Shown: in pieces, positions 48,430 through 49,135 of the stretch | Layout: each line of letters opens with the position of its first letter | Position numbering within the stretch: position 1 is the first letter of the stretch | The notes under the pieces: model-generated | Database searches by the model: none | What the model saw: the letters and a program-made list of their open reading frames with translations, nothing else | What the model was told of the DNA's origin: nothing | Program-made: the position numbers and the translations under genes | IMG/VR virus record: IMGVR_UViG_3300028588_000025 | Coordinates: 1 to 63,394 of that record | DNA length: 63,394 bases | Reading direction: 5' to 3' (one strand) | DNA from: a virus | Lineage: Duplodnaviria; Caudoviricetes

Positions 48430-49135
48430 GGCATTAGTCTCTACCTCAGGTCCAGCCCGGCGGGGCTGCCAGGGAGATAGGGGGCTGGGTTGATCACTCA
48501 GCCCCCGGATCTAAACGTAACACACCAGTTTTAGAGCGATGCACGCATATAGAGGCGGGCGGGACAGTCGAAAAACTGCAGGTAGGGGTCTGGTCGGGGC
48601 CGAGTCCTGATACGAGGACAACCCGGAACAAGGTGGATTAGCCAGGCCGGGGCGCGCTGCTAAGGGGGATGAGGCAGCACTCAACTTTATAAACAAGGTG
48701 GTCCTTTAAAGCTAGGGGCAACCGGGATAAACACTACCAAAGCCTCAAGTGCCCGGCCACCATAAACAGCCCTCCCCTACAGGAGGGCAGGACCAGGCTG
48801 GAGTAGCCAGGGTCCATACACAACTGAATACCTGTTCAGCAATGCACAGAGGACCCGAGCTTCGACCGGGGTGGCAAGCCAGGCGGATTGGTCTCCGTGA
48901 AACGACCACTCGGGAGGGTAGCCAAGTGGCCCAAGGCGCTGGAGCGACTCGCACAAAACAGTAACCAGATTTCGTAGGTTCGAATCCTACCCCTTCCACA
49001 AGTGCCTACCGGTGGGGATGCCCATGGCACTGACCAGGTGGGCCAACCCTGGCAAGGCGAAGGAAACGACGCCCCGTATTCGCCCAATAATCGCCTGAGG
49101 TGCCGATATCACCTCCGCGATTGGCAAGTGCCTCG
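48430..49135 (+). ncRNA. Candidate large structured non-coding RNA
   Basis: No credible ORF; at least 8 consecutive hairpins; TATGAT -10 at 48419; embeds a tRNA-like domain. Confidence 0.45.
48912..48998 (+). tRNA. tRNA-like RNA with non-canonical expanded anticodon loop
   Basis: Acceptor GGGAGGG/CCCTTCC+A; D arm GCC/GGC with AGTGG; T arm GTAGG-TTCGAAT-CCTAC; CTGG/CCAG stem enclosing 22 nt. Confidence 0.75.

Follow-up and report, generated by a model that had tools for sequence, protein, structure and literature searches.

A conserved pseudoknot element and a tRNA mimic within a mosaic non-coding gap of a phage genome: a candidate leader RNA

In phage T4, a pseudoknot in the leader of gene 32 serves translational autoregulation by the single-stranded DNA (ssDNA)-binding protein gp32, and the tRNA cluster of the same phage holds small stable RNAs, species 1 and 2. 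Larger phage RNAs are also known: GOLLD and ROOL are conserved multi-domain RNAs of roughly 500-800 nucleotides (nt), and some GOLLD RNAs hold a tRNA inside. Here we describe a non-coding gap in a complete virus (phage) genome record of 63,394 bases (IMG/VR record IMGVR_UViG_3300028588_000025; Caudoviricetes), hereafter the window. The gap contains an RNA element of ~145 nt with an H-type pseudoknot (hereafter the element), followed two nt on by an 87-nt tRNA-like gene (the tRNA mimic). An earlier note on positions 48430-49135 had proposed a hairpin-dense, ~700-nt structured RNA and had pointed to GOLLD and ROOL. A conserved RNA with covariation is indeed found beside a tRNA-like gene, reduced to the ~145 nt and the 87-nt mimic. 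Like GOLLD (RF01998) and ROOL (RF03087), it is phage-borne, non-coding and located beside tRNA genes; unlike them, it gives no match to either family at gathering score or at E ≤ 10, the conserved unit is only ~145 nt long and its surroundings are not conserved. The coordinates of the features are collected in Table 1.

A blastn search against 50,697 phage records returned two partial relatives of the locus, Curtobacterium phage Shrew and phage Parvaparticeps (Parva). In a whole-genome local blastn, Parva and the window gave a single match (12393-12536 and 48769-48909, respectively; 78.5% over 149 columns), and because this is the only match of two otherwise unrelated genomes, the ~145 nt appear to be a unit conserved or exchanged on its own. 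A covariance model, R1, was built from these two copies. Metagenome and metatranscriptome contigs supplied two further relatives, seen in sequencing runs only, which made a degenerate pattern for the 3' part of the element possible; it matched five IMG/VR loci (L035-L039). A second pattern matched 15 viral loci, of which L037 and L039 were already members and 13 were new; among the new ones only L044, a minimal copy, matched R1 at E ≤ 1. R1 recognized L037 (57.3 bits), L036 (43.3) and L038 (23.1) over their full length, and L039 (15.6), L044 (11.5) and L035 (6.4) at the pseudoknot core. In these last three the knots, 25-29 nt long, are near-identical; the L035 locus first ended inside the element, and its extended record shows a complete knot. 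The family comprises eight genomes (the window, Parva, L035, L036, L037, L038, L039 and L044) and the two run-only relatives, and the matches at these loci have 47-63% G+C. Comparison of these genomes thus establishes the element as an RNA family present in at least eight phage genomes, always on the coding strand.

Searches elsewhere added no member. R1 detected no additional copy in Shrew, among 151 genomes of the family of a Microbacterium genome or at loci with chance matches to an 18-mer; the latter came from a scan of genome contigs that gave 22 loci, all of them chance matches without similarity past 18-26 nt. The knot pattern gave two matches over 401 genomes of the class of a Microbacterium genome, neither confirmed by R1, and no second copy was found in the window or Shrew with filters off. 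Blastn of the non-coding regions of Parva, Shrew, L037 and L036 against the same 50,697 records yielded no further carrier. Exact-pattern scans of viral contigs with two window/Parva strings and a pattern for helix P3 returned 0 matches each, and two scans of metagenome contigs returned 0 matches and then 1 chance match within a hydrolase gene. No relatives were found in viral contigs via the thymidylate synthase ThyX or the 60-amino-acid (60-aa) protein encoded before the gap, and none of 1560 records from a tblastn of ThyX against phages was close. Rfam gave nothing at any element copy at E ≤ 0.5. No description of the element was found in Rfam 15 or in the literature, in searches not aimed specifically at it, and it is apparently a small, undescribed pseudoknot motif; a catalogue of 10,006 candidate viral RNAs (PMC10690425) may already list it.

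The core common to the family consists, from 5' to 3', of a single-stranded 12-mer, one or more variable hairpins and the H-type pseudoknot, whose consensus is GCGG-WUU-RGYC-UCCGU-GNAAC-GRCY. The 12-mer, ACAACUGAAUAC in the window, carries 1-3 changes in L036, L037, L039 and L044 and is matched more weakly in L035. In stem S2 of the knot, four loop bases pair with four bases past a GNAAC or GCAGUAAAC linker. S2 was absent from the search model, which carried a competing helix, and it pairs in all eight genomes: as GGUC/GACC in five, AGUC/GACU in L038, GGCC/GGCC in L035 and, with a G-U pair, GGUC/GACU in L039. In a close DNA relative of the window, T48892C occurs together with A48905G, a compensatory S2 pair. 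Helix P4 reads CCCG/CGGG in three copies, CCCA/UGGG in L037 and CCAG/CUGG in L039, and in P2 an A-U pair is swapped for U-A between the window and Parva. The comparison with homologous loci proposed earlier thus shows compensatory changes in S2, P2 and P4; the other ~480 nt of the noted interval share nothing with related loci.

Pairing was also counted in an alignment of six sequences (A3), which is model-based and fitted to the model: 86.8% of cells pair, against 81.1% in shuffles (0/500 reach 86.8%) and 36-52% in slid controls, and six pairs change on both sides (5/500 shuffles). Helix 4 of this count is no test of P3, because the P3 outer stem stands one column off, and S2 was read row by row and left uncounted because alignments A5 and A6, made with MAFFT, have the 4-nt loop insertion of L036 and L035 in the wrong place. 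Two candidate helices were dropped: a GUGG/CCAC helix with a lone pair, suggested by RNAalifold, competes with S2 and is not kept in L036, L038 and L039, and the CTGAA/TTCAG stem of the earlier note is present as a complementary pair in the window and is not kept in the homologues. The conserved element is evidently not coding, as judged from its copies: indels between them are not multiples of three, and in L044 a stop codon and the start codon that follows it are 104 nt apart, with the whole element between them. The invariant G83-U98 and U35-G44 wobbles fit the plus strand only.

All eight copies are co-oriented with their flanking genes, and in six a start codon follows after 25-47 nt, with a G-poor, A-rich leader in between; together these six leaders contain 28 G in 218 nt (12.8%), compared with 25-32% G for the loci. 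The genes that follow encode an ssDNA-binding-type protein in three cases, DNA polymerase A in two and an unknown basic protein in one (Table 1). This layout resembles that of T4 gene 32, in that an H-type knot stands 5' of an unstructured leader directly before an ssDNA-binding-type gene (Parva, L035 and L044); the combination is apparently present in 3/8 members, the SSB (ssDNA-binding protein) hit being weak and confined to Parva, and the window copy precedes a tRNA mimic. It differs in that other copies of the element are followed by DNA polymerase A genes, an unknown gene or tRNA mimics, in that no sequence relation was seen, the comparison being one of layout, and in that the carriers with recorded hosts infect Curtobacterium and not T-even hosts. 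PMC10690425 gives the T4 gene 32 leader knot as not modelled in Rfam. Because the position of most copies resembles that of the T4 knot, we favour a cis-acting leader role. Our best explanation, to which we assign a probability of about 0.5, is that the gap is a five-part mosaic in which the element acts as a cis-acting RNA leader element and is accompanied by a tRNA mimic.

In this mosaic, a hairpin would end the transcript of a small early gene and be followed by an unconserved spacer of ~250 nt. The third part would be the conserved ~145 nt with 12-mer, variable hairpin and H-type pseudoknot, and the fourth the mimic, with a G3:U70 pair and no usable anticodon loop; stable hairpins and then the promoter of the next operon would complete the gap. 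The pseudoknot would provide a fixed, nuclease-resistant anchor or nucleation site from which a phage protein, e.g., an ssDNA-binding protein, could spread over the unstructured leader and set translation or stability. For the window and L039, in which a tRNA mimic and not an open reading frame (ORF) follows the knot, we propose that RNase P would cut 2-4 nt after it and free the element and an alanine-type tRNA-like RNA. Should the element truly be a regulatory knot, phages would have in it a compact and portable RNA module; two otherwise dissimilar Curtobacterium phages have no other DNA in common. Gene-32-style leader-knot control would then reach phages of Gram-positive, high-G+C hosts as well as polymerase genes.

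Several observations weigh against a cis-acting leader. No ORF follows the element in the window, so that a leader or operator role cannot apply there directly, and the window lacks a homologue of the ssDNA-binding-type protein of Parva and L035. The ssDNA-binding label of that protein (phrog_2300) derives from an acidic tail, a position after an AAA_24 gene and, for Parva only, a weak SSB PHROG hit (E 1.4e-4). The family is small, and L039, L044 and L035 match R1 at the knot only, with weak scores. S1 and the loop were fixed in the patterns used to collect the family, so the invariance of S1 is by construction. L037 does not keep P3, which L038, L039 and L044 lack. Finally, parts of the stretch occur in twelve leaf-litter metatranscriptome runs, of which three RNA runs from three studies (X6, X7 and X8) were compared together with one DNA run. 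No exact RNA contig in X6-X8 covers 48540-49010, which is no evidence of silence, and the contigs give neither strand, ends nor level and may include DNA carry-over. In favour of transcription, part of the element (48810-48878) is covered in a diverged relative by a metatranscriptome contig of 724 nt, which continues into a variant knot.

The main rival is that the element is a stand-alone small stable RNA acting in trans, which RNase P together with RNase Z or E would release from a tRNA-type precursor; it would resemble species 1 and 2 of T4. This reading would explain why the element directly follows a tRNA or tRNA-like gene in Parva and L035-L038 (only the L038 tRNA-Met among these five is recognized by Rfam) and precedes one by 2-4 nt in the window and L039, where the junction pseudoknot-AC-NN-GGGNNGG is shared. 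The conservation of the element upstream of unrelated genes, and the consensus promoter directly before the tRNA-like and element unit of Parva, fit it as well. However, the L044 core has no tRNA-like gene on either side and sits between a stop codon and the next Shine-Dalgarno sequence, and a start codon this close, as in 6/8 copies, typically marks a leader. The metatranscriptome contigs, in which small RNAs readily go missing, gave no sign of an abundant discrete RNA. We consider this alternative unlikely.

Extending the leader reading, the element could represent a new, widespread class of phage leader operators that couples the translation of replication genes to free ssDNA-binding protein, the controlled genes comprising two unrelated ssDNA-binding-type families and DNA polymerase A, with an alanine-chargeable, anticodon-less mimic as its partner. 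The orphan alanyl-RNA could then draw off tRNA-targeting defences as a decoy, or work outside the ribosome as a donor or sensor. We regard this extension as unlikely.

The annotated start of the Parva coding sequence (CDS) QXJ40733 overlaps the element (L001 2579-2681 = MZ357096 12471-12573). Its true start probably lies 102 nt downstream, because the in-frame ATG at L001 2681 gives MPRL..., like MPKL... in the L035 homologue. At least one annotated gene start would thereby be corrected, and the element offers a motif for annotators of actinobacteriophages.

The tRNA-like domain suspected in the earlier note proved real. The Rfam tRNA model (RF00005) scores 49.6 bits at 48912-48998, above the 29 bits expected of a cloverleaf, with four arms aligned. 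The mimic has normal acceptor, D and T arms and a 4-base-pair (bp) anticodon stem, whose halves are separated by a 22-nt loop in place of a 7-nt loop with a readable anticodon; a Ser(ACT) call by ARAGORN is forced, as it requires an unpaired stem. The 7-bp acceptor stem, GGGAGGG/CCCUUCC, includes a G3:U70 wobble. G3:U70 is an identity element for alanine, and it is present in 5/9 tRNA-like elements read (window, Parva, L036, L039 and Microbacterium phage Golden), far above the expectation for one identity among some 20. We infer that the mimic is an alanine-type tRNA-like RNA without a usable anticodon loop. The loop (48944-48964) can be read as GCG ACU CGC ACA AAA CAG UAA, six codons and a stop, and in a close relative C48959T turns the CAG of this frame into UAG; the frame is probably due to chance.

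The mimic has counterparts in cluster EA Microbacterium phages, in which a tRNA-Ala or tRNA-Phe(AAA) gene lies between helicase and DNA polymerase I. The L036 mimic is 84% identical to the annotated tRNA-Phe(AAA) of Golden and shares with it the G3:U70 acceptor, the T arm and the neighbourhood; Golden differs in having no pseudoknot element, and the window mimic has another D arm and the 22-nt loop. The Golden gene (L040 1501-1582) itself has the look of a mimic in its acceptor and T arm, with G3:U70 and an encoded CCA, and related cluster EA phages call this position tRNA-Ala. According to PMC7302621, subclusters EA2 (except Eleri), EA3, EA4, EA5 and EA8 have a single tRNA-Ala. Mimics with G3:U70 are now annotated as tRNA-Ala, tRNA-Phe(AAA) or 'tRNA-OTHER', or are missed, and they pose the question of whether phages make alanine-charged RNAs that are unable to decode.

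A transfer-messenger RNA (tmRNA) would also combine a G3:U70 acceptor and T arm, no working anticodon and a nearby pseudoknot, as seen in the window, where the layout of the knot presumably resembles that of tmRNA PK1. In contrast to a tmRNA, the tRNA-like part is one contiguous domain with no tag-coding loop splitting it, the knot precedes this domain as a whole, and there is no credible tag frame, the six-codon frame ending in UAA possibly being due to chance; neither ARAGORN nor Rfam found a tmRNA in the window. Plant-virus tRNA-like structures of the turnip yellow mosaic virus (TYMV) type and bacterial Y RNAs (YrlA) likewise join tRNA mimicry to a pseudoknot or an extra module, the former differing in that the element family has no conserved 3' CCA after the knot. 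A single Rfam Tymo_tRNA-like match, in Shrew, is at chance level (13.8 bits, E 3.6), and a Y RNA or RNA-repair context was set aside, with no Ro60/TROVE or RtcB gene in the window (the TROVE control search was positive in 2/14 genomes). Use of the tRNA gene as an attP site was likewise rejected: the window has no tyrosine-integrase domain, the integrase class searched for, and across 201 genomes from the family of a Microbacterium genome the best matches were 18-30 nt of T arm.

The tRNA-like genes also bear on the possibility that the conserved part is the functionless remains of a decaying phage tRNA array, pseudo-tRNAs and spacers spread by recombination. Those of L035, L036, L037, L039 and Golden are degenerate and receive no score from the Rfam tRNA model at E ≤ 0.5, Shrew keeps the T arm only, and a close relative has a remodelled 48834-48878 segment, in which 19 positions are gaps. 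Decay is nevertheless very unlikely in view of the retention of the element as the only DNA common to two otherwise unrelated genomes and across loci whose matches differ so much in G+C content, the compensatory changes, the fixed orientation and position relative to start codons, and the G3:U70 kept in five of the nine tRNA-likes.

The limits of the gap were set by its neighbours. The ThyX gene (47307-48203; Pfam Thy1, E 3e-45) lies upstream, and small, lysis-like and tail genes follow from 49334. Directly before the gap, the 60-aa ORF is evidently a real gene, judging from its homologue: its product is 61% identical to Shrew gp31 (33/54 aligned residues, E 3e-23), with no Pfam or PHROG family, and in Shrew the same promoter precedes the homologous small gene at the same spacing. 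As this ORF is a real gene, the true ORF-free gap is 48418-49333 (916 nt). It contains no convincing ORF, in agreement with the non-coding character noted earlier, and is longer than had been thought. The TATGAT -10 box of the earlier note was not borne out: the promoter of the 60-aa gene is the only promoter-like site in a scan of 47800-49700, and RNA contigs run across 48418.

Within the gap, only 48765-48998 is conserved; nothing else matches any related locus. Shrew is syntenic, with the same promoter, small protein and downstream promoter motif and a similar membrane-protein gene. Its gap is only ~520 nt long, yields no tRNA call, lacks the element and shares with the window just an identical 24-nt T-arm stretch. 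The modules also occur apart, Golden carrying the tRNA mimic only and L044 the pseudoknot element only. On these comparisons the gap is a mosaic in which the small pseudoknot element and the tRNA mimic are the only conserved, putatively functional RNAs. Shrew gp32 (L026 3352-3489), annotated as a 45-aa CDS, lies inside the non-coding gap, overlaps the T-arm-like hairpin GUGGGUGCAACUCCCAC and may not be a gene.

Folding statistics agree with an uneven locus. In sliding 120-nt segments with 60 shuffles each, plus-strand z scores of -2.7 or below occur in the gap only at starts 48420, 48700, 48740, 49060 and 49100, i.e., in three places (48420-48460, 48700-48740 and 49060-49100), and segments starting at 48500-48660 and 48820-48980 score between -0.7 and +1.5; the mean is -1.09 inside the gap vs -0.49 outside. 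The description as hairpin-dense therefore holds for three hairpin clusters that beat shuffles, and the middle of the locus is at shuffle level. All complementary pairs named earlier are present at or near the places given for them: CAGCCC (48454-59)/GGGCTG (48463-68) within TCTCT/GGAGA, GGGGGCTGGGT/ACTCAGCCCCC (48480-48506), GTCCT/AGGAC, GGTGGTC/GGCCACC, GCCCTCC/GGAGGGC (48769-88), GGACC/GGTCC (48790-48815), AGTGCC/GGCACT (49001-31), CCAGG/CCTGG (49034-52) and AATCGC..GAGGTG/CACCTC..GCGATT (49089-49122). The repeated AACAAGGTGG is likewise found, at 48627 and 48692 (repeat D9).

The whole gap, possibly 48235-49165, could alternatively form one large GOLLD/ROOL-like RNA closed by pairing of its 5' and 3' ends. 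It is ORF-free, its plus strand is A-rich, its 723 nt fold at z = -2.19 (0/20 shuffles as good) and it holds a tRNA-like gene. There is also nested long-range complementarity between 48240-69 and 49121-65: 49121-37 complements 48253-69 (I1, 16/17) and 49157-65 complements 48240-48 (I7, 9/9), an exact distant inverted repeat of 13 nt being reached by 7/500 shuffles, and CAAGTGCC is clustered here. Against this stand the minus strand, which folds about as well (z = -1.94, 1/20 shuffles as good), and Rfam 15: cmscan of the whole window at gathering score returned a tRNA only, and 48200-49400 at E ≤ 10 gave no GOLLD, ROOL or tmRNA match and nothing beyond the tRNA. The Infernal check proposed earlier thus found the tRNA and no large-RNA family. 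About two thirds of the interval are unconserved, the syntenic Shrew gap differs in length and content, the modules are found apart in other phages, and a real protein gene contains the 5' arm of the long-range pairing. As a further, weak argument, the contigs of three studies go no farther than 48521-48536. We rate one large RNA as the least likely of the readings considered.

Table 1. Features of the gap and its borders in the window, and genes downstream of the element in other carriers
Feature	Position	Strand	Basis
Promoter, sigma-70-type, TTGACA-17-TAGCAT, placed for a leaderless start near 48235	48200-48228	+	promoter scan
60-aa protein gene, outside the non-coding RNA	48235-48417	+	homologue in Shrew, RNA contigs
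11-bp G+C-rich hairpin	48480-48506	+	inverted repeat I6; local z -3.07 and -2.02
Non-conserved spacer, ~250 nt, with AACAAGGTGG twice and the GTCCT/AGGAC and GGTGGTC...GGCCACC hairpins	48507-48764	+	
Conserved pseudoknot-containing RNA element, ~145 nt	48765-48911	+	blastn, model R1, pair counts
P1	48769-75/48782-88	+	element helix
P2	48790-94/48811-15	+	element helix
Single-stranded 12-mer ACAACUGAAUAC	48820-31	+	core motif
P3	48824-26/48847-49 with 48833-35/48844-46	+	element helix
P4	48854-57/48867-70	+	element helix
Pseudoknot S1, GCGG/CCGU	48883-86/48895-98	+	knot stem 1
Pseudoknot S2	48890-93/48904-07	+	knot stem 2
Non-canonical tRNA-like gene, 87 nt	48912-48998	+	Rfam tRNA, 2 nt past the knot
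Three hairpins after the tRNA-like gene	48999-49122	+	not conserved elsewhere
Two segments complementary to the 5' part of the small gene, and CAAGTGCC repeat	49121-49165	+	I1, I7
Likely next-operon promoter (-10 TAGACT, 49322-27) and short leader	49299-49333	+	motif common to Shrew
Putative phage ssDNA-binding protein, PF24083	downstream gene, L044		
phrog_2300 protein with acidic tail, after AAA_24 gene	downstream gene, Parva and L035		
DNA polymerase A	downstream gene, L036 and L038		
113-aa basic protein	downstream gene, L037		

The 8-mer CAAGTGCC occurs at 48258, 48746, 48999 and 49125, as three direct copies and one inverted within 0.9 kb; these are four of the six copies in the window, all within 48258-49132, and those at 48999 and 49125 each complement codons 8-11 of the small gene. 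The long-range complementarity and CAAGTGCC could reflect contacts with the leaderless mRNA through RNA-RNA pairing, or sites for proteins. For Shrew, a conserved long-range pairing was rejected, its 11 nt at 91% being at the estimated chance level. The locus might also act as DNA, either as a replication origin or as a cluster of protein-binding sites (CAAGTGCC, AACAAGGTGG and inverted repeats) between the replication and late modules. The density of CAAGTGCC, four copies where ~0.05 are expected from the window-wide rate, agrees with such a role, as do the two copies of AACAAGGTGG, the location of element copies within replication modules and a 12-mer-like motif that recurs after the knot in Parva, L044 and L037. 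Yet RNA is favoured by the compensatory changes and by the G-U pairs, which would read A-C on the opposite strand; orientation is strictly tied to transcription in 8/8 copies, the repeats are common to no related locus and there is no AT-rich unwinding region. A role as DNA is accordingly highly improbable.

In the remainder of the gap, exact RNA contigs from the three studies (48226-48536, 48242-48521 and 48099-48529) cover the 60-aa gene in three runs, and the contigs of X6, X7 and X8 end at 48521, 48536 and 48529, just past the 11-bp hairpin. Their common stop is a weak hint of a 3' end, and this hairpin is the probable 3' end, as terminator or stabilizer, of the small-gene transcript. The spacer behind it shows no similarity to any of nine related non-coding regions, and its folding z is near 0 for segments 48500-48660 and -2.8 at 48700. 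The hairpin at 49089-49122 (6+6 bp), a candidate terminator, is the most stable structure of the locus (z -4.72 and -3.75), and one exact contig of X6 covers 49012-49152. A scan for intrinsic terminators on the plus strand of 47800-49700 found none; neither hairpin has a U-tract, and the first was skipped for that reason. Flanking genes are covered at similar depth by RNA contigs.

At the downstream border, the motif CCTGATAGACT...CATGGAAC is common to Shrew, where a TTGACG -35 precedes it. It was not called by the consensus promoter scan of the window, and it likely represents the promoter and leader of the next operon, which begins with the membrane-protein gene at 49334. Further on, among the tail genes, a 511-aa protein (54909-56444) has a Pfam GDPD (glycerophosphodiester phosphodiesterase) domain and matches a PHROG phosphodiesterase (E 3e-70); it may be a teichoic-acid-degrading tail enzyme.

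Other loci of the family yielded some minor observations. A small hairpin follows the tRNA-like genes of L037 (8746-8775), L038 (9747-9716, minus strand) and L035 (~170-135, minus strand). It has the form GAUCCA.../...UGGAUC, with GACCCA/UGGGUC as a compensatory change in L038, and is followed by GCUUCAA (L037, L038) or GUUCCCA (L035). The tRNA-Met(CAT) upstream of the element in L038 (9735-9804, minus strand) has two mismatched acceptor pairs in its Rfam alignment. In L037, a homologue of the Thoeris inhibitor Tad3 (6859-7341; Pfam PF25185, E 3e-32) is encoded two genes upstream of the tRNA-like and element region, followed by the thymidylate synthase ThyA; the window likewise has ThyX just upstream.

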